From positions 1 to 57,479 of the forward strand of contig CBFICN010000003.1 in assembly GCA_965661045.1 (NCBI GenBank): a DNA stretch of 57,479 nt, read 5' to 3'. Below, piece by piece: positions 5,134 to 52,767 of the stretch; position 1 is the first letter of the stretch, and each line of letters starts with the position of its first letter. This DNA comes from an uncultured Myxococcota bacterium (lineage in GTDB: Bacteria; Myxococcota_A; UBA796). Made by a program: the position numbers and the translations under genes. The notes beneath the pieces are model-generated. The model did not search any database. It saw nothing but the letters and a program-made list of their open reading frames with translations, and had not been told where the DNA came from.

Positions 5134-6876
5134 ATGTCGTTTAGACAGGGTCGGTTCTCACTCCACAATCGTTGGGTGACCGGTTCTGTTGTTTTTGTGC
5201 TTCACACACTGTTTGTACTGTGGGGGGCAACCACCGGAATTCAAGCGTCTGATTCGTCTGAATTTGTGTTGTCAGCAGCCCAAAATGCTCGGATTCACCC
5301 ACCGGGCTATCCGTTGCTCTCGCTTTGGGTACAGTTGTTTTCAAACCTTGGTGACAATGTGGTTTGGAATACGACCGTTGCGATGGGGGTGTTGCATTCT
5401 CTTGCATTGGTGCTGCTGGTGGATTCGCTGTCTTTTCATCGAGGATCGGAGCACAACGAATCTGAGTCATTTCCCATGTTGCCCCTATTGATAGGGTCAT
5501 TGTTGACGTCACAGCCTTTGTGGATTCGATATTCCACAATCCCTGAAGCCTTTCCAGCGCTCACGCTTGTCTTTGCTGGCCTATATTGGTTGCTTCGTTG
5601 TGGCCGTTCGACTCATCGAACCGCTGCTTTGTTTGGCCTTGTGCTGGCTTTTGGAGTGGGGACGCATCATTTGTTTGTTTTTGCAGCACCGATGATTCTC
5701 CTGTTGATGTGGCGAATGCGGGCACAATGGTACACCTGGTTTGGCATTTCTTTGTTGGGGCTTTGTGCCTATGGACTGTTGCTGTTCTCCGATGAGAACG
5801 GCTGGTCTTGGGGGAGAGTTCAAGATGTCAATGATGTTGTGGCGATGTTCTTTCGCTTGGATTACGGAACGTTTCAAATTACCCATCGTACGGAGATGGG
5901 GACTTGGTGGGGAACACCGTTGGTGTATTTGAACACGTTGGTCCAAGAGTCCTACGGACTCTTTCTACTCGGTATTCTCGGTGCTGTACAGAGTATTCGA
6001 CAAGGGACCGGGTCCTCCAAGTTGGAAATGGGGAGTACACTGGCAGCGTGGTTCTTGTCTTCGGTGGTCGTGTTGGGACTCTTTGGTTTACCCACTGACG
6101 CTGCGAATCTATCCCACAGCAACCGATTCTTTGTTTCATCTATGGTTCTGTGGATGCCTTTCGTCCACAGAGGACTGTTCAACTTTTGTCTAAAAGTGCG
6201 AGATATCCATCGGCAAGGTGTGCAAATAAGTGTCCTGTGTGTGGTGATGCTGTTGATGATGACCAATTACCCTGTGGCTGGACGGTTTGATTCTAGAATG
6301 CAACGTTGGCTTGAACACTCTTGTTCGATCTTACCAGCAGGGTCTATGGTCTTTGTCGCTGGAGATGGGGCCGTGTTTGGCAGTGTAGTGGGTCAAGAAG
6401 TGTATGGCTTGTGTCTAGAGGTGCAGTTTGTATATCCCAGATTGTTGAGCTACTCTTGGTATCGAGAACGTTTGAGTACAGTGGGGTTGTCGGGCACAAC
6501 CATGCGTGAGATTTTGTCTCAGCATTCAGGGGCGGCGTTTACAGTGTTGGGATTGGTGGGAGAAGATCAAGAAAAGGGATTGCCGCCGTCGGTGCCTTTC
6601 GGAGGGTATTGGATGCAATTTATCCCTTCGAACCAAGACCTCCCAACACCTTTTGCAGTAGAAGAACACCTTGTCAATCAAGCAGCACAGATCGAGCAAG
6701 GTATTGAGCATTCATTGTTGCGTCATCAAAGTGCAGAAAATTGGCCCTTGGAGCAATGGGGACACAGTTGGTTGGCATTGGGTGCTGCTTACCGTAGCAT
6801 TGGAGAATTGGAACGCGCCAGCAAATGTGTTGAGTATGGTCGGCAGTGGTTGTCAGAAGATATTGAATCGGATTGA
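5134..6876 (+). CDS. Polytopic GT-C-type membrane protein, DUF2723/TMEM260-like putative protein O-mannosyltransferase
   Basis: 580 aa with many TM segments. N-terminal SDSSEFVLSAAQNARIHPPGYPLLSLW resembles the DUF2723 signature (HPPGYPL). Soluble C-terminal helical region. Confidence 0.6.
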   Translation: MSFRQGRFSLHNRWVTGSVVFVLHTLFVLWGATTGIQASDSSEFVLSAAQNARIHPPGYPLLSLWVQLFSNLGDNVVWNTTVAMGVLHSLALVLLVDSLSFHRGSEHNESESFPMLPLLIGSLLTSQPLWIRYSTIPEAFPALTLVFAGLYWLLRCGRSTHRTAALFGLVLAFGVGTHHLFVFAAPMILLLMWRMRAQWYTWFGISLLGLCAYGLLLFSDENGWSWGRVQDVNDVVAMFFRLDYGTFQITHRTEMGTWWGTPLVYLNTLVQESYGLFLLGILGAVQSIRQGTGSSKLEMGSTLAAWFLSSVVVLGLFGLPTDAANLSHSNRFFVSSMVLWMPFVHRGLFNFCLKVRDIHRQGVQISVLCVVMLLMMTNYPVAGRFDSRMQRWLEHSCSILPAGSMVFVAGDGAVFGSVVGQEVYGLCLEVQFVYPRLLSYSWYRERLSTVGLSGTTMREILSQHSGAAFTVLGLVGEDQEKGLPPSVPFGGYWMQFIPSNQDLPTPFAVEEHLVNQAAQIEQGIEHSLLRHQSAENWPLEQWGHSWLALGAAYRSIGELERASKCVEYGRQWLSEDIESD

Positions 6877-16586: not shown

Positions 16587-17384
16587 GTGTTTGGGATGTT
16601 GGTTTGGATGTTCACCTCTTTGCTTCATGCTGAGCCACAGTTCAAGGATGCCATAGAACGTTCCAAGACATTTTCCATACATGGGCAAGATGGTTTGGGT
16701 GAAGGAGAGGGGTGTTTCGACTCCGATTCTCGGTACATCCCTCAGACCGTCAATTGTCAAACGTGGTTGCAGTGGACAGTGTCGACGGCGTACGCCAAGG
16801 GTTCTGAAACGGAATTTCGGCAGTACATGGATGCGTTGCGATATTATGACGGTGTGTCCTTTGGCAACCGCAAGCATTTTGTCGATCGATGGGTGCTGTA
16901 TCAACCAGAACCCTTGGTCTCTTTGACTTCGACTGCTTGCCAAACGGATAGCAGTGTCGAGCGGGTGTTGAACCTTCGTCAGTTCAGACAGAAACATGGA
17001 TATTCCAGTCCATTGTTTCAAGAGTCCAAGTTTGGAGTAGAGCATCATGTGATCGCCTACATGTCAACAACCCGCAGTACAGAGTGCTTGCAGAGCTTAT
17101 CCGATGGATGGTATGTGGGTTTCTTTGTCGCCAGTCCGGCTTGGATTGAACGGTGGAGTACGATCGGAGACTTTGGTTTGGTGCACGGTATGATTTTTGA
17201 GAAGGTAGACCGCTCGATCACGGTACACCATGCTTCAATGGATGCCAAGCGTGTGGTATCTGAGCCTTGGGATCAGTTTCATCGACGCCTTGACTCTGTT
17301 TCGATGGGCTATCGACTCTTTGCATTGACACCCGATTGGACGGTCGATACTCAACAGAGAACCCGAGTCTCTGAATGTCCATAG
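16587..17384 (+). CDS. Hypothetical secreted protein
   Basis: 265 aa with signal-like MFGMLVWMFTSLLHA. First gene of a four-gene overlapping operon with two GT-C-like membrane proteins. Confidence 0.5.
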   Translation: MFGMLVWMFTSLLHAEPQFKDAIERSKTFSIHGQDGLGEGEGCFDSDSRYIPQTVNCQTWLQWTVSTAYAKGSETEFRQYMDALRYYDGVSFGNRKHFVDRWVLYQPEPLVSLTSTACQTDSSVERVLNLRQFRQKHGYSSPLFQESKFGVEHHVIAYMSTTRSTECLQSLSDGWYVGFFVASPAWIERWSTIGDFGLVHGMIFEKVDRSITVHHASMDAKRVVSEPWDQFHRRLDSVSMGYRLFALTPDWTVDTQQRTRVSECP

Positions 17385-19210
17385 AACCATCGCTACCATT
17401 CAACGCACCCAACTCCTACGCGCCGTTTATTTGCTGTGTATTCTCATCCTTGTTGATTGGTGGACTGCGGCTGGGACCCGTGTTGTGGAACCCCAGTGAC
17501 TATTTGATTGGTGGATGGGGGCATCCAGACAACATCGGCAATCACTGGTTGTTGGTGTGGGTGGCCGAAAGACTGTGGTCAGGGGAGTCATTGATTCACA
17601 ATGCTGAATATTATGTGCCGATTGGTGATCATCCTTGGTTGGCTGGGAATGGTACAGAAGGATTGTTGTATGCCCTGTTTCATCCTTGGTTGGGATGGCC
17701 GACGGCGGTGGTGCCACTGGTGTTGTTGTATTTTGTGGGAATGGGACTCGGAGGGTATGGCCTTGGGCGCGTGCTGTCATTGGGAAGGTGGGCTTCGTTG
17801 ATTCCGAGCATGGTCATTGTGTCTTCCGGATTTTGGACACGAGAGATCAACGCTGGACGATTTTCCCAACTGGATGGTGTGTGGCTTATTGCGTCTTTGG
17901 CTTTGTTTGTAGGACTGTTCACAGGAGAGCGTCGCAAAGGCTGGGCTACTTTGTGTGGTGTCACGGTTGGGTTGACTGGCATTTTTTATTGGTATTATGC
18001 CTATTTCTTTGTGTTGGCAGCACTGGTGTATTCGGGTGTGGCAGTTTTGTTGAAACCAGACACGATTTCCAAACCACGATTGCTCAACATTGGACTGGCG
18101 ATGCTGACTTCTTGGGTGGTGATCGCCCCTGTTGCTTGGGTGTACTGGCAACATTGGGGGTTGGTACCAGGGGTGGAGGAAGTCAAATTTCCATCCGCCG
18201 ATGCATTTTCCGACGCATTGACGTGGTCTGGTTCATGGCTTGTACCCTATGGACGAACAGCCGGTGCAGTACAGTCTATTCCCACTTTGGCACTGGCAAT
18301 TTTTGGGTGTGTGTCCGTAATTCGTCACCGAAATTCACCGACCACGCGCTTTGCTTTATTGAGTACGGTGTCCCTTTGTGGACTGTTTGGGTTATTGGCT
18401 TTTGGACCCAAGACGCCCCTCTTTGAATGGGTGTATGGCTGGTCGGTTCCTGTACGTCGGTTTTGGTGGCCCTCCCGTCATTTGTTGCTTTGGACTGTTG
18501 GGTGGGGTGTGCTGGCTGGTTTGGGTGGACGTGCGTTGCTTAGTACACTGTCGATGCGTTGGAGACCCCTGGCGGCAATTGTCTTGGCTTTGAGTGTCCC
18601 TGGTTCTCTTTGGGTACAGGGGGATCGACCTTTTCATGCCAACCACACACCCATTGAACATCCAGTGTCTGCCTATCAACCATTGACGACGTTGGAAGGG
18701 GAGGGGCTGTGGATGCACCCACTCAACCCCGCAGTTGCCAATACGCAGTTGCCGTTGTTGTTGCAACTGACCCACGGTAAGAAGTTGTTGAACGGTCACG
18801 GTATGTGGGTGGATAGGGTGCGACCGACCGAGTGGGATGAGTTTGTGGATGGCAATGCACTGTTGAAGGGCTTGTCCGAGTACGAGTTGGGCGCCCAAAA
18901 TCCGACGTTGAATATTTCTGCGTCTGACATCGATCAACTTGTGCAAACTGAACTGGAGTTGATCGTCTTGGATTCCAAACTCATACCGAGGCCACTGATG
19001 GGGTTGGTACCCAACTTAGCCAAGATTTACGGTCAATTGTTTGGAGAACCTGTATTGAGGGGAGAGCAATTGCGCGTGTGGTCCGTCGCCAATTGGACTG
19101 GAGTTACAGTGATTGCCTTGCCGAGTTGGACGTTGCCCAGTGGCATGGATTTGGGGAATGGGCGTCATCGGATGCCCGATCCCGTAGTTGGTCGTGGGGT
19201 GACACCATGA
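17375..19210 (+). CDS. Large polytopic membrane protein, GT-C-like (function unknown)
   Basis: 611 aa. About 12 TM segments followed by a roughly 200-aa soluble domain. Overlaps the upstream gene by 10 nt and the downstream gene by ATGA. Confidence 0.55.
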   Translation: MSIEPSLPFNAPNSYAPFICCVFSSLLIGGLRLGPVLWNPSDYLIGGWGHPDNIGNHWLLVWVAERLWSGESLIHNAEYYVPIGDHPWLAGNGTEGLLYALFHPWLGWPTAVVPLVLLYFVGMGLGGYGLGRVLSLGRWASLIPSMVIVSSGFWTREINAGRFSQLDGVWLIASLALFVGLFTGERRKGWATLCGVTVGLTGIFYWYYAYFFVLAALVYSGVAVLLKPDTISKPRLLNIGLAMLTSWVVIAPVAWVYWQHWGLVPGVEEVKFPSADAFSDALTWSGSWLVPYGRTAGAVQSIPTLALAIFGCVSVIRHRNSPTTRFALLSTVSLCGLFGLLAFGPKTPLFEWVYGWSVPVRRFWWPSRHLLLWTVGWGVLAGLGGRALLSTLSMRWRPLAAIVLALSVPGSLWVQGDRPFHANHTPIEHPVSAYQPLTTLEGEGLWMHPLNPAVANTQLPLLLQLTHGKKLLNGHGMWVDRVRPTEWDEFVDGNALLKGLSEYELGAQNPTLNISASDIDQLVQTELELIVLDSKLIPRPLMGLVPNLAKIYGQLFGEPVLRGEQLRVWSVANWTGVTVIALPSWTLPSGMDLGNGRHRMPDPVVGRGVTP

Positions 19211-20604
19211 GAGTATCTTCTGTTGCACTGATGCTCTTGTGTCTGGTGTGTTTGTGGCCCTATTCTCAAGGTGGCTTGGTGTGGGATGATCACATATTGC
19301 TAACCGAAGGGGTGTGGCAAATCGATAGTGTGTGGAGTATTTGGACACAATCGGTGCAAGGTGGGGAAATCGCCACCCAGTATTATCGACCAATACCGAT
19401 GACCCTGTTTGCACTGGTACCGAAGGTTCAACTGTTGCACTGGATTGCATTGATCACACATTTGGGGTCAACGCTCTTGTTGGGTTGCTGGTTGCACAAA
19501 AACTTTGACGATGCTGTAGTGCTAGCGGGAATGGCATTGTTTGCTCTACACCCCATTCAAACTGAGGTGTTGGGTTGGGTCAGTTGTTTGCCAGACATCT
19601 TGGCGCTTCATTTTGCACTTTGGACGGTCTATGGTTTGTGCAATCAATGGTCTCCTTGGTGGATTGGTCTGAGTTTCTGTTGTGGTTTGCTATCCAAAGA
19701 AGTCGCCCTCATTCCAATATTGGTGTACACCATCGACTGGCTGTGGACGAGGCGTCAACAAGGAGACCCTTTCGTTTTTCCAAAATGGGGATATTCCATT
19801 GGGAGTGCGTTGATTGTCGTTTTGGGGCTACGGATGATCATGCAGGTGCACACCGTGTGGCCTCATAGTTTCGACTCTGTTCCTCGGACGACGTTCTTCA
19901 CCCTTGGCATGGGGTGGTTTAGTTGGTTGAACCCCTTTCCACATTATCCGGTTCGAGATGTGTGGGTGCTGCCTCTTTGGTCTGTCTTGATAGGGTGGGC
20001 ATGGTGTGCTTGGATGCTGTGGAGGGGAGAGAGCGTTGTTGGGTGGCTCATCGCAATGGGTGCCTTGATCATCAGTTTACCACCTGTGTGGGTGGGCTAC
20101 TTTGCGGCCGAGCGCTATTTGTACATGGCGAGCGTTGGATTTGTTTGGTTGAGTTGTAGTGTGCTTTCACAAGTTGGGATTTCGAGGAGCATCATGCAGG
20201 GACTGCTGCTGATTTGGGTTCTATCGACGGGGTTGATTCACTGGGATCGAGCCAGCATTTGGTCCAGCGACAAGGCACTGTTCTCTGAGGCTGTTCGGGT
20301 GTTGCCAAAATCTGGGTATGCCTGGCACCTTCAAGGCTTACACCGGATACGAATTGGTCAGTTTGAATCGGCATTTCATTCTTTTACAGAAGCGAGTCAA
20401 CAGGCGCACACCCACCATCAAAGTCGTGAGTTTGCCATTCGCAGTGCATTGGAGTCTGGGTTGTCTGAACAGGCTTTTGAATTGGCAGAAACGGGACCCC
20501 AGATCGGTTTGTCAAAGGGGTATTTGGAAGCGTGGTTGCAGGCAGCCGATGCAGTGGGGAATACACAACGCAGTCAGGAATTGAGACAGATCTTGGCGGA
20601 CTAA
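19207..20604 (+). CDS. PMT_2/TMTC-like GT-C glycosyltransferase with C-terminal TPR-like repeats
   Basis: ATG 19207 overlaps TGA 19208..19210. N-terminal GGLVWDDHILL motif is typical of bacterial TMTC/DUF1736-type O-mannosyltransferases. Polytopic, with a helical-repeat C-terminus (AWHLQGLHRIRIGQFESAFHSFTEA...). Confidence 0.6.
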   Translation: MRVSSVALMLLCLVCLWPYSQGGLVWDDHILLTEGVWQIDSVWSIWTQSVQGGEIATQYYRPIPMTLFALVPKVQLLHWIALITHLGSTLLLGCWLHKNFDDAVVLAGMALFALHPIQTEVLGWVSCLPDILALHFALWTVYGLCNQWSPWWIGLSFCCGLLSKEVALIPILVYTIDWLWTRRQQGDPFVFPKWGYSIGSALIVVLGLRMIMQVHTVWPHSFDSVPRTTFFTLGMGWFSWLNPFPHYPVRDVWVLPLWSVLIGWAWCAWMLWRGESVVGWLIAMGALIISLPPVWVGYFAAERYLYMASVGFVWLSCSVLSQVGISRSIMQGLLLIWVLSTGLIHWDRASIWSSDKALFSEAVRVLPKSGYAWHLQGLHRIRIGQFESAFHSFTEASQQAHTHHQSREFAIRSALESGLSEQAFELAETGPQIGLSKGYLEAWLQAADAVGNTQRSQELRQILAD

Positions 20605-21848: not shown

Positions 21849-23867
21849 TTACCGCGACAATATGTGTGTCTGTTGGTTGTTTCGTGCTCTTCTTCGGTAA
21901 AATGAGTCCATGTACAAGATGTGTGGAAAAGTGATACAGGACCCCGCAATGATGATCCATCCTAAATGAAAGGGCTGTAGAGAGAGTGTCAGTACAAAGA
22001 TTGCACAAAAGAGAAATGCCCCAATCGTCAACGGCAATGCTTCTTGCCACATGGATCGATCAGATAGGGTGATGGCTTCTTTGAGGTGGGTCCACGCTTC
22101 CAAACTGTGTTGCCCAATAAAGTATAGACCGAATGCCATAGGGAGTGGCAACCATGCCGATGCCCACAAAGAGATCGTGGACAAGAACAACTGCACTGAA
22201 CGTGTTTTGAATAGCAAACCCACTTGTAGGAATGCCATGGACAACAACCAGCCAATGGAATTCTGCAGTGGTAGGCTAGAGTGTACCGACAGCAGTTCAA
22301 CAACAATCTGACTGTCTTCAGGATGAGACAGGATGATCCATCCCAACACCGATAGTCCCCATAGAAAAATAGACACTGTATGCTCCGGCAGTTTCCAATG
22401 CTGAAAGTCCGTTTGGCCAAAATGCCAAGCTGAGGTGAGTACAAATACCCCCAAACCAACAGTTGGACTGAGTAGCCACAGTACTGCCATACTTGCAATT
22501 AAACCCCAATAGCGCATGTGAAATGACCCATTCCATCTGGAGACACCTTGTTCGCCAACGGTATGATAATCCAAAGCTCCATGGGGTATGCCAATCGCCA
22601 GCATACCAAGTCCCAACAACACCCAGCCAGCATAGCCAGTATAAATGGGAAACAGTTGGTATAGGACGATCAATACACTCGTTGTCATCAGCAATAGGAT
22701 TGAGGGAGTAAAAAGACGTCTTTGAATTAGAGCCTGTAAAAAAGGTGTCCAAGGCAATCCAGCAAAAATTTCGATCTCTTCCCAAATACTTGTCTGTTGT
22801 CGAAGAAATTTGAGAACTCTGGCAAGCTGTTGGCTTCGAAAAAGTTCTTTAAAGATGTCCTTGCCCAAGTGTGGTTTTGTCATCAAAATGTGAATGAGTA
22901 GATCGTCGTAAAATGTGAATCGTGGCTGGGGGGTAATTGTGGGTTGTCGATCTAGATCCATACAAATTTCTGTTGCGTGTTCGTACATGGTTTCAAACGC
23001 GTAGCCCGTACTGGGTTTGACGGCACCAGCGCGAGATCCAATAGACAGACAATTGGGTAGAGAGGATGGAGTACTCGAATGGATTGACATTGAGATGATG
23101 CCCCGTTCTGTGTTCAGAACCGTAAATGAACCCCATTTTTTCTGTATGTAGTGTTCGAGGTGTTGCTCAGCTCTTTTGGTCTCGATGGGAGCAATTCCAA
23201 ATCGAGTGCACTCAACCAAAGCACGCGTTGAACTTTCCGGAAGAATGTACATAAATTGTGTGGCATCATCCTGTGGAATATCAAAATCCATCAGGGTCAA
23301 AGTGTCCTCTTGGATGTTGGGTTCTGAAAGTTCGATAAAGAATCCAACGAAGGATTGAAGCAACCCTCTTGAAGAATTTGTTGAAGAGGCAAGGGGACGG
23401 CCATCAAAAACTTGTTGGCTGATGATGGTTGTATTGGCAGTATCAATGCGCAAAGACTTGGAGCCTTCTATTGCATCAATCTTTTCTACACTGTCTCGAA
23501 GGATTTGAATGCCATGTTGTCTACACAATCGAGTTGTGGAATCAAACAGTTTTTGACTCTCAATTTGGTAATATTGATTGGGGGCAATGCATTGTTTTGG
23601 AAGTGGAGGTACTTCGGCAAATTTCCAGTGCCGTTGTATGACATCTTGATGCTCCAAGACAATGGGATCGGTCGGAGATGCCCAAAAACACAATGTTTTG
23701 GGTGTGTGTTTGTGTGTTGGCTCCACAATTAATATAGAGTACTGGCTCAAGATCCCACGTCGTTCGAACGCTCGTAGAATCAAGCAAGCTGCGATGCCCA
23801 ATCCACAAAATACAAAATCGTACTCCGGAAGCAAGTCCTGATGAGATGTGGCCTTCGAGGTTGACAT
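21849..23867 (-). CDS. Fusion protein: lycopene beta-cyclase (CrtY/CrtL-type, N-terminal) + beta-carotene 15,15'-dioxygenase (Brp/Blh-type, C-terminal)
   Basis: N-terminal part (about 22712..23867): FAD fold YDFVFCGLGIAAC, FMYILPESSTRALVECTRF, GSRAGAVKPSTGYAF. C-terminal part (about 21852..22711): 7-TM Blh with GIPHGALDY, SAWHFGQTDF, YFIGQHSLEAW. One uninterrupted frame. I prefer the ATG 23867 start because the GTG at 23909 lies inside the upstream terminator stem. Confidence 0.85.
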   Translation of the reverse strand: MSTSKATSHQDLLPEYDFVFCGLGIAACLILRAFERRGILSQYSILIVEPTHKHTPKTLCFWASPTDPIVLEHQDVIQRHWKFAEVPPLPKQCIAPNQYYQIESQKLFDSTTRLCRQHGIQILRDSVEKIDAIEGSKSLRIDTANTTIISQQVFDGRPLASSTNSSRGLLQSFVGFFIELSEPNIQEDTLTLMDFDIPQDDATQFMYILPESSTRALVECTRFGIAPIETKRAEQHLEHYIQKKWGSFTVLNTERGIISMSIHSSTPSSLPNCLSIGSRAGAVKPSTGYAFETMYEHATEICMDLDRQPTITPQPRFTFYDDLLIHILMTKPHLGKDIFKELFRSQQLARVLKFLRQQTSIWEEIEIFAGLPWTPFLQALIQRRLFTPSILLLMTTSVLIVLYQLFPIYTGYAGWVLLGLGMLAIGIPHGALDYHTVGEQGVSRWNGSFHMRYWGLIASMAVLWLLSPTVGLGVFVLTSAWHFGQTDFQHWKLPEHTVSIFLWGLSVLGWIILSHPEDSQIVVELLSVHSSLPLQNSIGWLLSMAFLQVGLLFKTRSVQLFLSTISLWASAWLPLPMAFGLYFIGQHSLEAWTHLKEAITLSDRSMWQEALPLTIGAFLFCAIFVLTLSLQPFHLGWIIIAGSCITFPHILYMDSFYRRRARNNQQTHILSR

Positions 23868-23892
23868 GGAAGTCCATTGCTGAGTGACGTTG

Positions 23893-23927
23893 AGAAAAAA
23901 GAAAACCACCCCAAATGGAGTGGTTTT
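23893..23927 (-). terminator. Rho-independent terminator between the rhodopsin gene and the crtY-blh fusion
   Basis: Minus-strand RNA AAAACCACUCC-AUUU-GGGGUGGUUUU, an 11-bp stem including one G.U with a 4-nt loop, followed by CUUUUUUCU. It starts 18 nt after the rhodopsin TAA. Confidence 0.8.
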
Positions 23928-23945
23928 GTGAAGAACGAGTTCAGA

Positions 23946-24680
23946 TTATGCTGCTTGTTGTGCGCGAATCTTTTCACTCTCTGCTTTGGCAACGCTGTAT
24001 ACTACGAGACCGAATCCAATCTTGTTGATTGCGTCTGCAATGTTGTATACGATGTTCATTTCAAACATACCGGCCATCCAGTTGTCTGGCATAGTCATGT
24101 AACCAATCGGGTAGATAGACCATCCCAATGTGATGAAGATACCCAACAAGAACATGGCTTGCTTCAACTCAGGAGAGTCACTGGACTGAGAAAGTTTGCG
24201 TACGTCGCCAGCGAATACTTCGTATACGATGTAGGCGTAACCGATTGTTGAAATGAATCCCCAAAGGACAGAGCCACCACCGAGGATTGCAGCTTCACCA
24301 ATGTATCCGGTGACCAACATCCAAACAGAAGCAACGATCAACTTGAAGAGTGTGCTGCCTTTCGCGCCGAATGGTTTTGTGAGAAGATAGAATTCAACAC
24401 ACATCAATGGTACAGTCAAAATCCAGTCGATGTAACGGAATGCTGTGGGAGAAGTTCCAGTTTGAATCCAGAAGTCACGCATGTAGTAGTAGTGCACGCA
24501 TGCAATTCCAGTAATCAACGCAGATACAGTCAATGACAGACGCCACTTACCTTCTACAGAGTTGCGCTCCAGCAAAAAGAATGCTGTTGCAGCCATCATG
24601 GCCATTGTGCCGATGAAAAATGTGAAACCAGTGTAATCTTCTGTTCCAAGATTGCTGGCAGCCAGTAATAAGTTGTTCAT
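23946..24680 (-). CDS. Proteorhodopsin/xanthorhodopsin-type light-driven proton pump
   Basis: 244 aa, 7 TM. RYIDWILTVPLMCVEF gives the D-T-E motif (codons 24426..24428, 24414..24416, 24393..24395). His in CVHYYYM. Schiff-base Lys in YNIADAINKIGFG (24021..24023). GGAG RBS 7 nt upstream. Confidence 0.95.
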   Translation of the reverse strand: MNNLLLAASNLGTEDYTGFTFFIGTMAMMAATAFFLLERNSVEGKWRLSLTVSALITGIACVHYYYMRDFWIQTGTSPTAFRYIDWILTVPLMCVEFYLLTKPFGAKGSTLFKLIVASVWMLVTGYIGEAAILGGGSVLWGFISTIGYAYIVYEVFAGDVRKLSQSSDSPELKQAMFLLGIFITLGWSIYPIGYMTMPDNWMAGMFEMNIVYNIADAINKIGFGLVVYSVAKAESEKIRAQQAA

Positions 24681-24710
24681 GGTTTACTCCAATTTGAACC
24701 TGTTCATTAT

Positions 24711-24735
24711 CTATTCAAAAACGACTTTTGAATAG
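24711..24735. promoter_or_regulatory. Perfect 10-bp inverted repeat CTATTCAAAA-N5-TTTTGAATAG (candidate operator or 5'-UTR hairpin of the rhodopsin mRNA)
   Basis: Read directly from sequence, 31-55 nt upstream of the rhodopsin ATG. The half-site-like CTATTCAA recurs at 24826..24833. Confidence 0.5.
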
Positions 24736-24791
24736 TTAATTGTACAATATTGATTCTCATTGACCATATTTTAAAGAAGTATACAGCCAAA

Positions 24792-24823
24792 TTTCTGCAT
24801 TATTTGAATTTTAGATGCAGAAA
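24792..24823. promoter_or_regulatory. Perfect 9-bp inverted repeat TTTCTGCAT-N14-ATGCAGAAA
   Basis: Read directly from sequence in the divergent control region. Confidence 0.4.
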
Positions 24824-25157
24824 ACCTATTCAATGTATTCTGATGATGTGTTGGTATGTACGTATTTTTGGGATGATTGTACGTAAAGTATTAAACTCAC
24901 AAACTTGTTTTGTTGTATAAAGTTAATATATGCAAAATAATGCACTAATTTTTGAAAGAGTACGTTTAATCAGAAAAATGATCCATCATTTTATACTAGA
25001 CTTTAAATCAATACTGGGTCATCCTAATTTCTCTGCTGTGTTCGTCTCTGTCCCAAAAAAGACTATAAGACAATATAATGCCTATTCACTTTTCAAAATT
25101 GCAGTATGTATCATCTGGTTCAAGAAAAGAACTGAGCGATATGTTGGGAGAGCATCG

Positions 25158-26285
25158 ATGATGGCGGCTTTGTTTGCTCTTTGTTTGACGCCATTGTTGA
25201 TTGCAGTTGTCAATTTCTTGACTTGGTACAGGCCTGTTGGAAAAACACGTGACGCTTCAACGGCTCGCATTTCTGTGTTGATTCCCGTGCGAAACGAAGA
25301 ACACAATATTAGACAGTGCCTTGAACACGTCTATGATTCAGACACTGCTCCATTTGAAGTGATTGTCTACAATGACAACAGTACAGACGCAACCGCTGAA
25401 CAACTCAAAGCTATTCAAGTGCGGTACCCATCCTTGAAGGTTCTGCATGGAGCCGCTTTACCAATGGGTTGGGCCGGAAAGAACCACGCTTGTCATCAAC
25501 TTTCGAAAAGTGCTTCGGGAGACATTTTTGTTTTTTTGGATGCCGACACCAGGTTGATGTCTGGGTGCTTGCGTCACGTTCGGAGCATCGCCTATAGTCA
25601 AACATTGCCGTCTGATATGGTTTCTGTTCTGCCAAAGCAAACCATGCAGACCTTTTCTGAGCAATTGCTCATGCCCTTTCTACACCTTACCTTTGTGTCT
25701 TGGCTTCCACTCGAACTGGTGCGTCGATTGCCCTTTCCATCCATGACAGCCGCCATTGGTCAGGTCTTGGCTATTAAATCTGAGGCGTACAATCAATCGG
25801 GTGGTTTTGCTGCGATTCCAAATCAGTTGGTTGACGATATGGCATTGGCCACCCTATTCAAGAAGAATGGACAGACGGTGCGGTTTGTGGATGGGCACCA
25901 ACTCGTTTCTTGTCGTATGTATTCTTCTTTGTCTGACATTTGGCAAGGGTTTAGTAAAAATGTCTTTTTGGGCTTGAAGCAGAATATTTTCTTGTGGCTC
26001 TTTGTCATTGCATTGTACACACTCTGTTTTGTGCTCCCCTTTGTATTGCTGGCCTGTCTGCCGTTGTTGGAACCATCCATGGTTGGTTGGGTACTAGGGG
26101 GTGTTGGGGCGAATTACACGCTGAGGGTACTGCTGGCTCTTCGATATGAACAGTCCTGGTCGTCCGTTTTGTGTCATCCAATTGCCAGTGTGATCGCCAT
26201 CGGAATATTTTTCAACTCCGGACTGCAAACTTTAACCAAGGGTGTGGAGTGGAAAGGGCGCACCTATGGCAACGTCAAATCGTAG
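25158..26285 (+). CDS. Family-2 glycosyltransferase, CrtQ/CruC-like (carotenoid glycosyltransferase-like), membrane-embedded
   Basis: ATG 25158 after GGGAGAG; the upstream 76 codons of the ORF track are AT-rich non-coding. Motifs ISVLIPVRNEEHNI, VYNDNSTD, MGWAGKNHACHQ, FLDADT, C-terminal TM bundle ending VEWKGRTY. As I recall it, this is the same layout and terminal motif as Staphylococcus CrtQ. Confidence 0.7.
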   Translation: MMAALFALCLTPLLIAVVNFLTWYRPVGKTRDASTARISVLIPVRNEEHNIRQCLEHVYDSDTAPFEVIVYNDNSTDATAEQLKAIQVRYPSLKVLHGAALPMGWAGKNHACHQLSKSASGDIFVFLDADTRLMSGCLRHVRSIAYSQTLPSDMVSVLPKQTMQTFSEQLLMPFLHLTFVSWLPLELVRRLPFPSMTAAIGQVLAIKSEAYNQSGGFAAIPNQLVDDMALATLFKKNGQTVRFVDGHQLVSCRMYSSLSDIWQGFSKNVFLGLKQNIFLWLFVIALYTLCFVLPFVLLACLPLLEPSMVGWVLGGVGANYTLRVLLALRYEQSWSSVLCHPIASVIAIGIFFNSGLQTLTKGVEWKGRTYGNVKS

Positions 26286-27033
26286 ACACCCAATGGGAAA
26301 TCATTCTAAAGACGAGCGCGTACCGTTGTTTTATCGATTCATTCGATGGTTGATGGTGCGTAAACTTGGTCAGAATCTTGAGCAGGTATACATTCAGAAT
26401 CTTGAACAGGTTCAACACTTGCTCATCGAACAAAGCGTCATCATTGCCCCCAATCACGTGTGTTATTGGGATTCTTGCATGTATTTTTTGTTGAGTGGTT
26501 TGTTGGGACCACGTGCCTTTGTTTTGGTTGCCCAACAGACGCTGCGTCGATTGCCGTTTCTACGTTGGTGTGGGTCGATTCCCTTGAATACAGACTCCAA
26601 AGAGCAAGCCATTGCGCAATTGAAGGGGCTGTCCAATCTCAACACAGAGTCTACGCAGTTTTGGATTTTTCCGCAAGGGGAACACCGTCCGACTCAATGC
26701 ATGCCGTTGAAGTGTAAAAAAGGTGTGCTGCTGCTTGCCCAAGATTTGAAAATACCCATTGTTCCTATGTCCATTCAGTATTTGTATCGAAATTCTGAGC
26801 AACCTGTCGCCTATATCTCTTTTCAATCGTCACTATCGCACACTGTTGGTCTTAGCGAACTCGAACAGTCATTGAAGCAGGGGCTGGATGCATCCATACA
26901 GCATCATCTTGGTGAAGAAACACTGTCCTTTGTTCCATACTTTCCAGGGATTCAAGCTAGCCGAGATGATCTTCCAACCCGAATACTGGCTTGGTTTTCG
27001 GGCATGATTTTGGGTGATGTGTCCAAAAACTGA
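26266..27033 (+). CDS. PlsC/LPLAT-family acyltransferase
   Basis: HX4D motif APNHVCYWDS and FPQGEHRP (motif III). Overlaps the GT2 gene by 20 nt if ATG 26266 is used (GGAAAGGG RBS); alternative start ATG 26293. Confidence 0.75.
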   Translation: MATSNRRHPMGNHSKDERVPLFYRFIRWLMVRKLGQNLEQVYIQNLEQVQHLLIEQSVIIAPNHVCYWDSCMYFLLSGLLGPRAFVLVAQQTLRRLPFLRWCGSIPLNTDSKEQAIAQLKGLSNLNTESTQFWIFPQGEHRPTQCMPLKCKKGVLLLAQDLKIPIVPMSIQYLYRNSEQPVAYISFQSSLSHTVGLSELEQSLKQGLDASIQHHLGEETLSFVPYFPGIQASRDDLPTRILAWFSGMILGDVSKN

Positions 27034-27038
27034 TGCAA

Positions 27039-27067
27039 AGAAACCCAAACAAGCGTTTCTTAATTTT
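27039..27067 (+). terminator. Possible weak terminator between the convergent acyltransferase and iscX-like genes
   Basis: AGAAAC-N10-GTTTCT followed by TAATTTT. Short AT-rich stem. Confidence 0.3.
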
Positions 27068-27075
27068 CAGTGGCG

Positions 27076-27321
27076 TCATCGTTTTGAAAAATCGTATGGA
27101 TCGTCTGCGTCTGGATTGTCTTCTTTCCATTCTTCATACCAAATCATCTGAATGGCCTCGAGGTGCCCTTCAGTCGAAGCTTCAGGGTCTCCATCAAAAT
27201 CTTCCAGTGCCACAATCCAATCGTGTAATTCAGTGAACCGAATGGACAATGGGTGGATATCAGGCTTGAGATCGTAGAGTTCTTCAGCGATTTCGCGTGT
27301 GTTGTTCCAGTTGAGGGCCAT
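27076..27321 (-). CDS. iscX: IscX (YfhJ)-like Fe-S assembly accessory protein
   Basis: From ATG 27321: MALNWNNTREIAEELYDLKPDIHPLSIRFTELHDWIVALEDFDGDPEASTEGHLEAIQMIWYEEW, which closely parallels E. coli IscX (WTDSREIGEALYD...VRFTDMHQWI..LEDFDDDP...LEAI). The 60-codon upstream extension in the ORF track is rejected. Confidence 0.75.
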   Translation of the reverse strand: MALNWNNTREIAEELYDLKPDIHPLSIRFTELHDWIVALEDFDGDPEASTEGHLEAIQMIWYEEWKEDNPDADDPYDFSKR

Positions 27322-27393
27322 CTGTGCTCCAAGAGTTTTCAATGGTGTTAGTTTATATGAGAATATATCGACTTTGACCTGTCGGGAGTATCG

Positions 27394-28728
27394 ATGTCTG
27401 ATTTTTTTACCAATCCAGTGGTGCAAACAGTGTTTGGACTGGCTGTGTGCTTTGTCATCGCTTCTTGGTTGACCAGAATTCCCAAACTCAAGCAGTTGCA
27501 TTTGCCTTTGTCAATCGTAGCCGGAGCCGTAGGGGTACTTGCTCGGTATATAGATCCGACTTGGATGGATGTCGACGTACTCAAGACACTGGTTTATCAC
27601 GGATTGGCCTTGGTGTTCATCACGGTTGGGTTGCAGGTTCCACCACCCAACACCAAAACAAAGGAATCTCTCACCATTGGCTTTGCGATTTCTTCAATGG
27701 GTGCGATGCAAGGGTTTTTGGGCGCGACCGTGGTGATGTTGCTTTCCGCTTTGCAAGGCAGTCAATTGCATATCGGTTTGGGCCTACTGTTGCCACTTGG
27801 GTTCAATCAGGGACCAGGTCAAGCATTGTCGTTTGGACGGGTATGGGAGACGACTGGTTTGGAAAATGGGGCTGACATTGGCATCATCATTGCTGCGATG
27901 GGCTTTGTTTGGAGTGTGATCGTGGGGATCCCGTTGGTTGTGTACGGTCGTCAAAAAGGGTGGGTGGAACGTGATCTGGAGGGCTTGTCTTTTGACTCAG
28001 GTGTCACCGAGCAGACGGTCCCCAATTGGCTGAGTCGCCCAGAAACACTGAGCAACAGTGTGGCACTGGTGATTGGCACGTACTTTTTGACGTATGTACT
28101 GATTGATGGAGTCACCGAGCAGTTGGTGTCCAAACCCAAGATTGTCAACATGCTTTGGGGATTGCACTTTGTCATCGCGTTGTTCGTCGCGATGGGTATT
28201 CGACAAATGTTGCTTCGCTTCGTTGACGCTGATGGTGTAAAAGGGCACAATCAACGTCTCCAAGTGCTCAGCAATCTGACGGTGGATGTGACGACAGCAT
28301 CTGGATTGGTGGCCATTCAAGTTGCGGTGTTGTCTTCAAATTTGGGGGTGGTATTGTTGCTGACGACCTTGGGTGGTGTGGCGTCATTGGGCATGGCACT
28401 GGTTTTGTTTCGACGGGTGTTTGAACGATTGCCGTTTCACCACTTGGTTGTCTGGTTTGGTTCTTGTACCGGCACCTTTCCGATGGGGCTGTCGTTGTTG
28501 AGAATGATCGATCCCAACTTGAGTACCCCGTGTGCAACAAATTACTCTAAGGGTTCAGCATTTGCGTTGATCACATCGGCCCCTTTGTTGGTCTTGTTGG
28601 CCTACGCCATCGGTCAGTACCCCGACAATTACCCCAGTGCAGGATGGACTACGATGGGACTGTTGTTTGGGTATTGGATGTTCTTGCTGTTTGCCTGGCG
28701 TCGCATATGGGTCAAATCTTCAGATTGA
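27394..28728 (+). CDS. Sodium/glutamate symporter (GltS/ESS family)-like transporter
   Basis: 444 aa, about 12 TM, GGGAG RBS. Resembles GltS at LPLSIVAGAVGVL, GFNQGPGQALSFG and FGSCTGTFPMGLSLLRMI. Assigned by resemblance only. Confidence 0.5.
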   Translation: MSDFFTNPVVQTVFGLAVCFVIASWLTRIPKLKQLHLPLSIVAGAVGVLARYIDPTWMDVDVLKTLVYHGLALVFITVGLQVPPPNTKTKESLTIGFAISSMGAMQGFLGATVVMLLSALQGSQLHIGLGLLLPLGFNQGPGQALSFGRVWETTGLENGADIGIIIAAMGFVWSVIVGIPLVVYGRQKGWVERDLEGLSFDSGVTEQTVPNWLSRPETLSNSVALVIGTYFLTYVLIDGVTEQLVSKPKIVNMLWGLHFVIALFVAMGIRQMLLRFVDADGVKGHNQRLQVLSNLTVDVTTASGLVAIQVAVLSSNLGVVLLLTTLGGVASLGMALVLFRRVFERLPFHHLVVWFGSCTGTFPMGLSLLRMIDPNLSTPCATNYSKGSAFALITSAPLLVLLAYAIGQYPDNYPSAGWTTMGLLFGYWMFLLFAWRRIWVKSSD

Positions 28729-40856: not shown

Positions 40857-43800
40857 TTATTGATCCTCTTGAGCACGTTCGAGCGCTTCAATGATGGCGG
40901 GTCGCAACTGCTTAGCCTCAATAATTGCGTCGAGTGAACCAACATCAATTGCCCGTTGAACGCTGTGGATATTGTCAAACTCAGTTGCGATGATGCCACG
41001 TTTCTCCAACGTCAATGTAGTGAGCATTTTGTTGCGTTCTTCTAGCAAAAATGGTTTTTCTGCATTTCGGGCTTCTTGGATTCGCTTGTCCAGTTCGATC
41101 AAGCGTTCATCTTCATTGACCAGCGCTTTGACTTTTCGAGGGAATACGACCGCAGCAGCCGGTGCGCCTCCAATAACAGAGGCAAAGGAACCTTCGACTG
41201 CAATGGCCGTGATATTGGGGTTGAGTGCTTTGGAAAACACCACATAGGCCCCACCGTGATAGCGCCCAATCACGACGAAGACGATCGGTGATGCACAGTT
41301 GACCACTGCGCGTCCAATTTCCGCGCCGTACTCTAGTTGCAATCTGCGCAACGACTCGGGTGAACCATCAAACCCACTGAGATTGGCCAGTACCACGATC
41401 GGCGTTTGTCCACTGGCTGCATTGATGGCGCGCGCAATCTTTTTGGAACTTTGCGGAAATAGGGTACCCCCAGTCCAGGTGTCGGGGCCATCCAAGGGCA
41501 CTCGACCACGCCGCAAGATCGGTTGGGATTCAATTCCAATGACTGTGCTGGAAATCCCTCCAATGTGCGCAGACCACACAATGGCCGATTCTCCTTGGTG
41601 CAGTTGAGCAAAGCGTTCAAGATACTGACTGTCCTGATCAATCAGTGCTTGCATCACTTGACGAATGGCGAACGGCTTTTTTCGTTCTGGGTTGTGCTCT
41701 TTCGAAAAGATATCCCCAATCCGTTTGAAGTAGGGGTGATTCTCATCGGTATAGGGATGTAAGCACACATTTCTATTGGGAGAGTCATTGGTCAACTGTT
41801 TGGGAGATCGACCGGTTTGTGGGTCACAGAAGGTGTGTCGATAAATCTCAAACAAGAGGGCATAGGCCTCTCCCAAATCAGCAACTCGGTATTGGGATTG
41901 TCCGTTTGGTCCCATGATGCGCTCAACACCACCGATGCCACGCTCGTCTTCAGCAGAAACGCCCCCTGAAAAGTCCAGTGCCTTCTTCCCTGTGAGAACC
42001 ATGGCGGCTTGGGTTGTCATAATCAACACCCCTTTGGTGTGCATGAGCATCGTGGCTTCTGCATTCCAGTACGATTGCGCACCCACGTTGATTCCGTGTA
42101 CAATGACGTGAATGACCCCACCTGATTGGGTAAATTGGATGATTCGCTCCAGAACTCGGGCAGTCCAGTCAAGGTTTTCCGTACCGGAGTTCATGGATAT
42201 CATGGCCCCAGCCGAAACAGGGACCCACTCAACAGGAATGCTCAGTTCTAAAGCCAAATCAAGCGCCGCCATAATGCGAGAACACTCTTTTTCTGCCAGT
42301 GACCCCATCGCTTTCGTTGAGTCGGATCCAATCCAAATGCGTTGCATTCCTTGTGGAAATTTACTCGTGGTGTTGTTGATAATTCCTACAACGACACCAC
42401 AATTGTTTTGACCAAAGGGTCTCAACACTGGAACAAACTGACCACTGGAATTGAAGTCGTATTCTTGAAAACGACCGTTTCGCATGTCTGGATGTGGAAT
42501 GTTCAATGCGGTGGGAGACCCTTCAAGCATTCGAATGATTTCATATGGGTAGACGTGTCCAAACTTCTGGGCCCGTACGGCCTTCATATCATAGGTGGAC
42601 ATCGGTGGGATGGCCAGATGGTTGTCGAGCCAGTTGAATTCAAGCTGGTTGTTTCCTGACCGTCGGAGCTGAATGGTCGACCATTGGAATCGACTCGCCC
42701 GGGTTCGTAGGTGCAACTGAACTTCTCTAAGGTTTAAGCCACGCGTGTAGGGCTCTAACTGCTTGGCAAACAGTTGCAGCTCGGCTTCGTTGGTGTCCAA
42801 CTGGGGGTGGATGTGAAAGTAGAGCCAGTTCCACTGCAATCGTGATCGCTTTGTGCGTTGAGACTGTGTACTTCGGATCGCGCGAATGGCTTCAAAAAAT
42901 ACCCGTTCAAAGTGACGCAAGGGAAATGCTGCCCCTTCCGTGGAAGAGCCAAACACCTCGGCCAGCACAAAGATCCGTTCGTCTTTGGCATTGCTGTGGG
43001 CTTGTCCCAAAAACGCATAGATGTGTTCTTGTGAATAAATGCGAGACAGTTTGAACTCTTTGAGCCTTTCTAGTTTCAGTCGACTGGCAACTTGAGGGTG
43101 GATGTCGTTGAGCAAGGTTTGGAAGCGCCATTGTCCCTTTTGATAGACAAAGGTTCGATGGTGCGCCAGTTCGTTGTTCATCCAGGTCAGCGTGATGCGT
43201 TTGGGTTGAATCGGGAGTGTTGTCAGCAGGATGGGGGCTTGTTCAAGCCAAGACTCATCCAGTCCTTGGGGCAGTACAAATTCCAAATAGGTTGCCGGAT
43301 TGATCATCAGTTGCAAAATCTGTAGGATATTGTCTTTTGTGGTGTCGGGTTTGAACAGGATGGACAGGATGCGATCGGACTGGTTGATTTTCCCTTCGAC
43401 CAGAGCGTGCCCCTCTACCTCGGCATCATTTGTCCAAGTGTAGGTCTCCCCAATGTAAAAACGACGCGTCAGCGCTTCAATGATTCGGTGCGGTTGAGCG
43501 CCACTCTGCATTTGATACAGCGTTTGTTGGAGGGCTTGTGGTGATCGGCCAAGTTTCCGCATAACGGTGCGAACCACTTTGCTGTCGGCGTCGTAAGATT
43601 CCATACTCGAAAACATTTCCTGAACGGCTGCGGTTAGGGCTTCCATTTGTCGTCTGTTTTCACCGTGGGCAAAGAACAGGTGGTGGGCATGAATCGCATT
43701 GTCCTGTACATAAGGGTGGTCGGTGTGGGCCGCTTGACCTGTTTTTTCAAGGATGTCTTCAAGTTCTGCCGGTGGAGTCCAGTTGGTTTGGTGTAAGCGG

Positions 43801-51541: not shown

Positions 51542-52767
51542 ATATTTTCCTTGACCCAAGCAAGGGCACTTTCTTTGCTGTGTAATCTTTCGTGTAATTG
51601 TTCGGTTCGCACTTTGTCTATCCAAACACCAATGTCCGGACCTTTCAATCCAAGTGCAATCAAGTCTTTTCCAGAAATCAAACGTGGCAGTGGGGTGGTC
51701 AGTCCTCGGCTCAAAGCACTTTGTCTATTTTGTGCAGCGATTTCACCTTCAGTCCCTTCGACGATGGAGGCTACATCACACAGGAATTGGATGTCAAAAA
51801 TATCACTGCAGATATTTTGGGTGATGGTGCTGTGATCGGAGGTGAGCAAAGGGGTGGCAAGGTTGGTTCCCAGAATGGCCTCTTTGACTGGAAAGCCCAT
51901 GAAGCGTTCGATGCTCAGCGCGTCCAACAAAGCGAGTGTTTCGTCTTTTGAAAGAGGATGGGTCAACAGCGCTAAAAACAGTCCCATGCTGCGTCCAGGG
52001 TTGTTGGGGGCTCGAAGTCTGGCGCCCCGTCTGCAAGATTCAACGATGCACTCTTTATCTGCTTTGCTTAGCGAAGCGTATTGTGGAAAATAGTTGGGCA
52101 TTGCGTTGAGTTCAAACAGCCATTCAACTGCCACATGTGGTTCTGGACTTTTCATCCAAGCTTTTTGCAATTCAACCCACACGCGCTCTTTGGGAAGGCG
52201 TACAAAGTCTGGGTGTTGGACCAATGTATGACACAAGGTTTGGAGACTTGCATCCACAGTGCACGAAAGTCGACCGGCAAATTGACAGACTCGAAACACC
52301 CGCAACAAGTCTTGGGCAAAATATTTCACGTCTGTGGCCCGCAACACCTTGTTTTCTAAGTCGGTCAACCCATTGAAGGGGTCGACGAGTTGTTGCGTCT
52401 CTATGTGAATCAACATTGAATTGATGGTGAGGTCTCTTCTTCGACAGGCTTCCTCCACTCCCACAAAGGGCGTCGGTTCATCGAGCAGTTTTGGAAGTGC
52501 AACATCGACTTCGAGTTCATCACCGTGTTGAGGCAAGAGTTTCCACACCCCAAAACTTTTTCCGACCTTTCGAAAGGGGGGGAACCGATAGAGAATGTCT
52601 ACAAGTTGCTCCGTCGTCAACCCGTGGACTTCTACGTCAATGTCCTTGGAGTCAATTCCCAGTAGGTGGTCTCGAACACTTCCACCTGTCACATACACAT
52701 CTCCGCCGGCTTTGCTGACGGCCTTGGAGAAGTGCAGAACTTTGTCTGGCAGAGAAATTTCTGTCAT
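51529..52767 (-). CDS. cca: CCA-adding enzyme (tRNA nucleotidyltransferase, class II)
   Basis: 412 aa. VYVTGGSVRDHLLGIDSKDIDVEV, RRDLTINSM, C-terminal HD-like region. Confidence 0.85.
   Translation of the reverse strand: MTEISLPDKVLHFSKAVSKAGGDVYVTGGSVRDHLLGIDSKDIDVEVHGLTTEQLVDILYRFPPFRKVGKSFGVWKLLPQHGDELEVDVALPKLLDEPTPFVGVEEACRRRDLTINSMLIHIETQQLVDPFNGLTDLENKVLRATDVKYFAQDLLRVFRVCQFAGRLSCTVDASLQTLCHTLVQHPDFVRLPKERVWVELQKAWMKSPEPHVAVEWLFELNAMPNYFPQYASLSKADKECIVESCRRGARLRAPNNPGRSMGLFLALLTHPLSKDETLALLDALSIERFMGFPVKEAILGTNLATPLLTSDHSTITQNICSDIFDIQFLCDVASIVEGTEGEIAAQNRQSALSRGLTTPLPRLISGKDLIALGLKGPDIGVWIDKVRTEQLHERLHSKESALAWVKENICSP

Follow-up and report, generated by a model that had tools for sequence, protein, structure and literature searches.

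A predicted lycopene cyclase-carotene dioxygenase fusion gene next to a proteorhodopsin gene on a metagenomic Myxococcota contig

Results

One reading frame joins a lycopene cyclase domain to a Brp/Blh domain

The 57,479-nt stretch of DNA analyzed here (contig CBFICN010000003.1 of assembly GCA_965661045.1, from an uncultured Myxococcota bacterium; hereafter the window) carries a gene in which a domain of the flavin adenine dinucleotide (FAD)-type lycopene cyclase family (CrtY) is followed, in the same frame, by a β-carotene 15,15′-dioxygenase domain of the Brp/Blh family. This fusion gene lies 78 nt downstream of a proteorhodopsin gene on the same strand (Table 1). A first-pass annotation of the window had described a single uninterrupted frame of 672 codons with a domain boundary at 22711/22712, and both statements hold: the frame is present in the list of open reading frames (ORFs), both Pfam domains are complete, and the boundary falls between residues 385 and 386. 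The four motifs that it had quoted were also found, namely YDFVFCGLGIAAC at residues 16-28, GSRAGAVKPSTGYAF at residues 277-291, GIPHGALDY at residues 426-434 and WHFGQTDF at residues 481-488. The longest open version of the frame (21849..23909) encodes 686 residues from a GTG codon and contains the in-frame ATG at 23867 from which the 672-residue protein is read. The ATG would seem the better start, because homologues (646-699 residues when full length) begin about 15 residues ahead of the FAD motif and because the GTG at 23909 sits within a terminator-like hairpin, for which reason we rejected it. The protein aligns colinearly with 116 homologues, cyclase first and dioxygenase second; all counts of invariant positions given below refer to this alignment of 117 members.

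Table 1. Features of the fusion locus (coordinates are those of the window; L013 is the related contig described in the text)
Feature	Position	Strand	Evidence and remarks
crtY-blh fusion gene	21849..23867	-	672 codons; stop codon 21849..21851; ORF list, Pfam, NCBIfam, L013 orthologue
FAD-type lycopene cyclase (CrtY family) domain, residues 17-379	22731..23819	-	PF05834; predicted cytoplasmic
TM0, extra hydrophobic helix, residues 386-406	22650..22712	-	Hydropathy and AlphaFold2; outside both Pfam domains
Brp/Blh β-carotene 15,15′-dioxygenase domain, residues 421-654	21906..22607	-	PF15461, TIGR03753; nine predicted membrane helices (residues 407-660)
Terminator-like hairpin	23892..23927	-	11-bp stem followed by a T-run, between rhodopsin stop and fusion start; consensus scan
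Proteorhodopsin gene, 244 residues	23946..24680	-	PF01036, E 2.7e-41; presumed retinal consumer
Weak match to a sigma-70-type promoter, ahead of the rhodopsin gene	24739..24766	-	9 of 12 consensus positions, no better than chance
GT2 glycosyltransferase gene	24930..26285	+	Best NCBIfam models HpnB and CruG, both far below cut-offs
Acyltransferase gene	26242..27033	+	In the lower-GC island

The junction recurs in independent sequences

A frame of this kind could arise if adjacent crtY and blh genes were joined by an assembly error or a sequencing frameshift, a concern that the first-pass annotation had raised; the window does come from a metagenome assembly, and local depth in the public runs, of which Logan contigs were examined, is low (about 2-4x). 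The window sequence is present in public marine plankton metagenome runs, and an independently assembled Logan contig of 470 nt from one of them (run X1) matches 22527..22996, and so the complete junction, without a single mismatch or gap. Run X3 contributes a contig over 22432..22670. Moreover, a 35.9-kb contig of a different assembly, GCA_965661985.1 (L013), runs colinear with 17.8 kb of the window, at a DNA identity of 79%, and has the same neighbours (LysE, rhodopsin, GT2 glycosyltransferase and acyltransferase). Its orthologue of the fusion (674 residues, 73.6% identical) has the same unbroken frame, and an indel artefact would not recur in an orthologue whose protein differs by 26%. The junction, together with the conserved helix TM0 that follows it, is further shared by more than 100 divergent sequence clusters, and stand-alone CrtY proteins stop exactly where TM0 begins in the fusion. 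These stand-alone proteins are mostly genuine, ending right after a conserved FLDE...LP..PFL motif, just before the TM0 position; one protein listed among them, P0218, resembles a truncated fusion. The artefact explanation is effectively refuted by the unchanged X1 contig and the syntenic L013 frame, and we regard the chance that it is correct as very small.

Cyclase and dioxygenase domains

The cyclase half matches Lycopene_cycl (PF05834) over model positions 1-378 of 380 with 133.1 bits against a cut-off of 23.4 (E 1.7e-38). Its dinucleotide-binding GxGxxA/G motif is present as FCGLGIAAC. G22 and G24 of this motif are invariant in the family, as are D155, R157, the M193-D194-F195 triplet, E219, T221 and R222; in the 284-KPxTGY-289 motif, K284, P285, T287, G288 and Y289 are invariant and S286 is nearly so (at least 90%). 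E219, which lies in an L-x-E-x-T motif, may be the counterpart of the catalytic glutamate of Pantoea CrtY. In an AlphaFold2 model built from the 117-sequence alignment (mean predicted local distance difference test score, pLDDT, 86; predicted template-modelling score, pTM, 0.71), the N-terminal domain has a flavoprotein fold, with 3oz2, 4n9x and 4opt as the best Foldseek matches (E down to 6e-13). A CrtY-type cyclase is expected to resemble FAD-dependent hydroxylases and geranylgeranyl reductases, and these are the relatives found in this way. The first-pass reading of the N-terminal part as a lycopene cyclase thus stands as far as the full-length PF05834 match is concerned, but the curated CrtY models TIGR01789 and TIGR01790 missed the domain. 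Judged by these profile scores, it is predicted to fall in the broad lycopene cyclase family, outside the curated CrtY equivalog.

The C-terminal half matches the BCD family (PF15461) over model positions 2-264 of 267 with 106.3 bits against a cut-off of 28 (E 2.7e-30), and it passes the curated cut-off of the Blh model TIGR03753 (121.8 against 95.25). Four histidines, H429 (in GIPHGA), H482 (WHFG), H587 (GQHS) and H649 (PH), are present in every member of the family, and a fifth, H594, is present in all but one (116 of 117). The Blh protein of the uncultured bacterium 66A03 is reported to have nine transmembrane helices and an iron site proposed to be formed by the histidines at positions 21, 78, 188 and 256, with His-192 close by (bioRxiv 10.64898/2026.08.06.743266). 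The five histidines of the fusion match this pattern in order and in motif context, the residue-by-residue correspondence being deduced from the GIPHGA, WHFG, GQHS and PH motifs. No PDB entry was matched when the fusion protein was searched by sequence, and in the Foldseek search only the flavoprotein domain was matched, the Blh domain having no structural relative among the top matches.

An extra helix and the predicted membrane topology

The membrane part had been described in the first-pass annotation as a seven-helix domain. This is wrong: the AlphaFold2 model and the hydropathy profile both give nine helices (in the model, residues 407-436, 447-466, 468-490, 497-513, 534-555, 558-570, 575-598, 603-627 and 635-671) preceded by TM0. 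The latter has a Kyte-Doolittle hydropathy of 2.15 and is modelled as a helix over residues 388-405. A hydrophobic segment of 18-21 residues (median hydropathy 2.0) occupies this position in 117 of 117 members, and the stretch just ahead of it is basic, with a mean of 3.7 Lys/Arg against 0.2 Asp/Glu. The C-terminal tail, YRRRARN, is also basic, so that the C-terminus is probably cytoplasmic. If the positive-inside rule is applied, the basic flank before TM0 and the basic tail suggest, as the simplest topology, that the cyclase is cytoplasmic, that TM0 crosses the membrane from inside to outside, and that the Blh domain has its N-terminus facing outward and its C-terminus facing inward. TM0 is probably a topology adaptor, linking a cytoplasmic cyclase to the outward-facing N-terminus of Blh, and as such would have made the fusion possible. 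In yeast, retinoid synthesis was lost when a cytosolic enzyme was attached directly to the N-terminus of Blh and only lowered when the fusion was made at the C-terminus (PMC12226859); the failure of the N-terminal fusion is a circumstantial fit to an outward-facing Blh N-terminus.

The neighbouring proteorhodopsin

Among solved structures, those nearest to the rhodopsin of the window are two proteorhodopsin entries, 9JOU and 9JOV, with E about 1.7e-72. The protein has D85, T89 and E96 (a DTE motif) and the Schiff-base lysine K220, which indicate the proton-pump type, with Met93 at the spectral tuning site and Gly141 at the position of Trp138 in bacteriorhodopsin and of the "fenestration" residue Gly156 in xanthorhodopsin. 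Its nearest named homologues, at 66-70% identity, are from Cyclobacteriaceae and Balneolaceae. According to a study of Nonlabens marinus, nearly all proteorhodopsins of Bacteroidota pair a methionine at the tuning site with the fenestration glycine, and such rhodopsins bind myxol or zeaxanthin (bioRxiv 10.1101/2024.11.08.622755). The window rhodopsin is thus of the Bacteroidota type (M93 and G141), though its host is apparently not a member of the Bacteroidota. The nearest named homologues of the MtaB of the window come from a metagenome-assembled genome labelled Proteobacteria (56%) and from Myxococcota (52%), which gives no decisive label, and cluster look-ups yielded no further names; the host is probably Myxococcota-like, with some uncertainty. 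With Gly141 at the fenestration position, the rhodopsin can probably bind a carotenoid. This lends substance to the first-pass idea that flux is divided between retinal and an intact carotenoid, since both may be required by the cell.

The pairing of fusion and rhodopsin extends beyond the window. A rhodopsin gene adjoins the fusion in 10 of 12 distinct loci, the window excluded (L001-L005, L007, L010, L011/L012, L013 and L016), and is absent near it in L009 and L014/L015. The arrangement varies: the rhodopsin gene may precede the fusion, follow it or be divergent from it. The association with rhodopsin is conserved, but it is not one fixed operon. In the Myxococcota-like locus of L009 (2999..9822), a TARA scaffold, the fusion lies downstream of genes for a polyketide synthase-like protein with ketoreductase, dehydratase and phosphopantetheinyl transferase parts and for two acyltransferases, and of a gene with no assigned function; this locus without a rhodopsin gene shows that the fusion is not always part of a rhodopsin cassette.

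The rhodopsin itself is much better conserved than its neighbours. Compared as proteins, it and the L013 copy (L013:4992-5726) are 99.6% identical, against 72-75% for the flanking genes and 91% for MtaB, and it is 95.9% identical to the copy in L016 (L016:486-1220), whose adjacent fusion is only 47% identical to that of the window. The block of high identity reaches into the non-coding flanks of the rhodopsin gene (about 23900..24800). Recent transfer of the rhodopsin gene was considered and rejected: its DNA differs by 7-10% from that of the L013 copy, and by the Nei-Gojobori method its synonymous divergence (dS) from that copy is 0.41, at a nonsynonymous divergence (dN) of 0.004 (fusion: dS 1.29, dN 0.175). 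The conservation fits better with strong purifying selection, perhaps together with codon bias or with an older recombination of the rhodopsin block.

Signals between and around the two genes

The hairpin between the two genes folds more stably, as RNA, than shuffled sequence (z-score -4.0) and is conserved in L013. It is probably an attenuating terminator, which would give many opsin transcripts and few enzyme transcripts, and it suggests that the fusion is reached by attenuated read-through and not by plain co-transcription. The region of the promoter-like match ahead of the rhodopsin gene is AT-rich, intergenic and 80-98% identical to L013, against about 75% for its flanks. In a metatranscriptome (run X5), contigs match within the fusion gene (23429..23579, no mismatches), one contig of about 95% identity crosses the hairpin (23762..23956), and contig depth is greater over the rhodopsin gene than over the fusion. 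These RNA contigs are weakly consistent with transcription of the fusion and read-through of the hairpin.

The two genes form part of an island of lower GC content (21849..27501, 5.6 kb; 0.44-0.46 against 0.49-0.52 in the flanks), in which the intergenic stretch 24681..24929 reaches 0.28. The island holds the fusion, the rhodopsin gene, the GT2 glycosyltransferase and acyltransferase genes and an ORF of 141 codons. The whole block is kept in L013 but not in the Bacteroidota loci, and it may be a laterally acquired unit. We speculate that the glycosyltransferase and the acyltransferase make a carotenoid glycoside ester.

The photosystem genes of the window are those for proteorhodopsin, CrtY and Blh. 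As the first-pass annotation had stated, crtE, crtB and crtI are absent from these 57 kb: a Pfam scan of every ORF of at least 150 residues in the window, leaving aside those nested in a longer annotated gene of a different frame or strand, gave no match to a polyprenyl synthase, phytoene synthase or phytoene desaturase.

The architecture is widespread in sequence databases

The rarity implied by the first-pass annotation was not borne out by searches with the fusion protein. In a protein collection clustered at 90% identity, 977 proteins were matched at E <= 1e-5, and all of the best 120 of these carry both PF05834 and PF15461 (length 476-724 residues). An exhaustive search of representatives of 50%-identity clusters gave 481 proteins at E <= 1e-30; of the 150 ranked highest, about 90 are complete fusions (646-699 residues, aligned in one stretch from about residue 15 to 660) and about 22 more are contig-end fragments that cross the junction, so that about 110 span it in all, with stand-alone CrtY proteins appearing only from about rank 100. 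The CrtY-Blh architecture appears from these sequences to be old, diverse and abundant. A species-level genome scan with patterns derived from the query alone found eight loci, with the fusion in metagenome-assembled genomes of Crocinitomicaceae, Flavobacteriales, Saprospirales and Cryomorphaceae; no cultured carrier was among these eight. The named members come from metagenome-assembled genomes of Myxococcota, Myxococcales, Bacteroidota and Crocinitomicaceae, and the fusion is the usual form in many metagenome-assembled genomes of Bacteroidota (Crocinitomicaceae, Cryomorphaceae and Saprospirales) as well as in marine ones labelled Myxococcota. Deposited members are named Brp/Blh (NCBI), lycopene beta-cyclase (JGI) or hypothetical protein, and never bifunctional.

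Within this family, the window protein belongs to a small marine subgroup (P0001-P0006). An exact look-up of the protein gave no match on record. Its identity reaches 73% with one sister cluster and drops to 45-48% with P0003-P0006, 39-41% with Myxococcota-labelled members and 34-38% with the large Bacteroidota group. In a neighbor-joining tree of cyclase domains, stand-alone CrtY proteins are intermixed with fusions; the tree gives no conclusion on one or several origins of the fusion, because identities of 30-40% and midpoint rooting make it unreliable.

The first-pass annotation had also stated that no characterized fusion was known. For bacteria this agrees with the full-text literature, in which we found no paper on a CrtY-Blh fusion, although most subscription journals lie outside its coverage and the absence is not proof; it does not extend to eukaryotes, for which a four-domain protein with a different type of cyclase has been published (PMC10016063). 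The window protein thus extends, as a divergent new example, a kind of protein recorded only in databases; it is not a kind of its own.

Relation to known photosystems and enzyme fusions

With the canonical operons of proteorhodopsin, crtEIBY and blh, and with the 66A03 Blh (UniProt Q4PNI0), the fusion shares the families PF05834 and PF15461/TIGR03753, the predicted chemistry (lycopene to β-carotene to two retinal), the histidines and the linkage to a proteorhodopsin gene. It differs in that crtY and blh are separate genes there and one polypeptide with an extra transmembrane helix here, in that crtE, crtI and crtB lie outside the cluster, and in that the cyclase is too divergent for the curated CrtY equivalog models. 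The same architecture is found in the uncharacterized proteins MEE2788719.1 and MGC6506802.1 (Myxococcota bacterium), MBL92965.1 (Myxococcales bacterium), MDB4649047.1 (Crocinitomicaceae bacterium) and MEI8053894.1 (Bacteroidota bacterium). Database fusions resemble the window protein in domain order, length (646-724 residues), TM0, the histidines and a usually adjacent rhodopsin gene, but they are just 35-48% identical to it, save for the one sister cluster at 73%.

The published eukaryotic case is the CrtI-CrtB-CrtYc/d-Blh protein of Thecamonas trahens (XP_013761525.1), which its authors interpret as a supply of retinal for rhodopsins (PMC10016063). Like the fusion described here, it has a cyclase directly upstream of a C-terminal Blh; unlike it, it combines four activities rather than two, and its cyclase is a membrane-embedded CrtYc/d, unrelated to the FAD-type CrtY. 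Consecutive enzymes of the carotenoid pathway are also joined in fungal CrtYB, thraustochytrid CrtIBY and verrucomicrobial CrtIB (PMC10284914, PMC10016063), the last of which lies in a rhodopsin gene cluster, but these are other enzyme pairs and none includes the cleavage step. A 2023 list of natural carotenoid-enzyme fusions does not mention CrtY-Blh (PMC10284914).

Discussion

The natural fusion itself is real, and we consider it likely that its product is a bifunctional membrane enzyme, converting lycopene to retinal for the adjacent rhodopsin. In the model that we infer, the cyclase domain (residues 1-385) would act at the cytoplasmic face of the membrane, turning membrane-dissolved lycopene into β-carotene. 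TM0 would span the membrane and join the cyclase to the nine-helix Blh domain with its outward N-terminus, whose four-histidine iron site would split β-carotene across its 15,15′ bond to give two all-trans retinal molecules, and the retinal would then pass to Lys220 of the proteorhodopsin encoded 78 nt upstream. The two genes would constitute a cassette of an opsin and its chromophore-finishing enzyme, needing just lycopene made by crtE, crtB and crtI elsewhere in the genome, and the intergenic hairpin would keep enzyme transcripts far rarer than opsin transcripts.

Several points weigh against this interpretation. The cyclase domain scores below the NCBIfam cut-offs for CrtY, with 58.7 against 215.2 for the equivalog TIGR01789 and 79.5 against 209.5 for the subfamily TIGR01790. 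The supply of lycopene is assumed, because crtE, crtB and crtI are not in the window, and the functions of all family members are predictions from sequence. A separate promoter for the fusion was not found, and the hairpin is expected to cut its expression. Finally, the RNA evidence consists of assembled low-depth contigs, some of them from a strain of about 95% identity, and DNA carry-over is possible.

With scores so far below the curated cut-offs, the product of the cyclase, whether bicyclic, monocyclic or other, is not readable from the sequence, and a real fusion might contain a monocyclase. It would then make γ-carotene, to be cleaved into one retinal and one acyclic C20 aldehyde, or it would serve mainly a pathway to monocyclic carotenoids. 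Blh accepts γ-carotene, which it cleaves in vitro and in E. coli (bioRxiv 10.64898/2026.08.06.743266); the CruG/HpnB-like glycosyltransferase and the acyltransferase encoded nearby are the kinds of enzyme that decorate monocyclic carotenoids; and myxol, a monocyclic carotenoid, is bound by NM-R1 of Nonlabens marinus, the closest rhodopsin with a solved structure (bioRxiv 10.1101/2024.11.08.622755). However, no sequence signature here separates monocyclases from bicyclases, and the tight pairing of fusion and rhodopsin in different phyla speaks for retinal as the product under selection, of which β-carotene yields twice as much per substrate molecule. We judge a monocyclase to be quite improbable.

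If the enzyme is bifunctional, its two domains need not pass β-carotene directly from one to the other. The fusion might instead tether the cyclase to the membrane, fix the enzymes at a 1:1 ratio and provide a two-gene unit that is easily transferred, with β-carotene freed to the lipid and shared. Carotenoids partition into the membrane anyway, so that co-location may suffice. The lower-GC island of 5.6 kb, the Bacteroidota-type rhodopsin in an apparently non-Bacteroidota host and the three gene orders of the fusion-rhodopsin pair would be expected of a small module that is repeatedly transferred and rearranged, and the fast evolution of the fusion (with a dN of 0.175, the rhodopsin having 0.004) does not suggest a finely tuned domain interface. 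On the other hand, the pTM of the model suggests a defined two-domain arrangement, the architecture of TM0 and linker is conserved in all 117 members, and other carotenoid enzyme fusions are reported, in work cited in PMC10284914, to lower the accumulation of intermediates. Tethering, fixed stoichiometry and easy transfer form a simpler account than channelling, and we hold it tentatively as a real possibility. A dedicated "retinal synthase", in which TM0 docks the cyclase at the entrance of the Blh cavity and lycopene is converted to retinal by direct hand-over, with no release of β-carotene, seems to us rather doubtful. Were it true, a cell whose bulk carotenoids are not derived from β-carotene could supply its proteorhodopsin with both retinal and an antenna carotenoid from one pool of lycopene, and the adjacent GT2 glycosyltransferase and acyltransferase might make those bulk carotenoids by glycosylation and acylation. 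We know of no characterized natural enzyme of this kind.

The bifunctional reading has consequences for annotation, engineering and evolution, all of which apply to the whole large family and none of which is unique to the gene in the window. Pathway reconstructions that assign one function per gene can miss crtY or blh in rhodopsin-bearing Bacteroidota and Myxococcota, because the fusion is named after one activity. For engineering, the fusion would be a ready-made natural one-gene design for the conversion of lycopene to retinal, and TM0, as an adaptor, may account for the failure in yeast of a soluble enzyme joined directly to the N-terminal end of Blh (PMC12226859). An opsin gene and the fusion would together be a two-gene module able to make any lycopene producer a rhodopsin phototroph, which could help to explain the spread of phototrophy between phyla.

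Other genes in the window

Elsewhere in the window, several genes of eukaryote-like type stand in a bacterial context, at 40857..46391 (-), 52764..53975 (-), 53975..56392 (-) and 5134..6876 (+). The set comprises a single-chain acetyl-CoA carboxylase of 1844 residues with an ACC_central region, a bifunctional 6-phosphofructo-2-kinase/fructose-2,6-bisphosphatase, a Suv3-like DEXQ helicase and a TMEM260-like putative O-mannosyltransferase. Two very hydrophobic ORFs with no Pfam match, at 17375..19210 (+; 611 residues) and 19078..20604 (+; 508 residues), overlap by 133 nt as called; both are kept in L013, as products of 614 and 472 residues.

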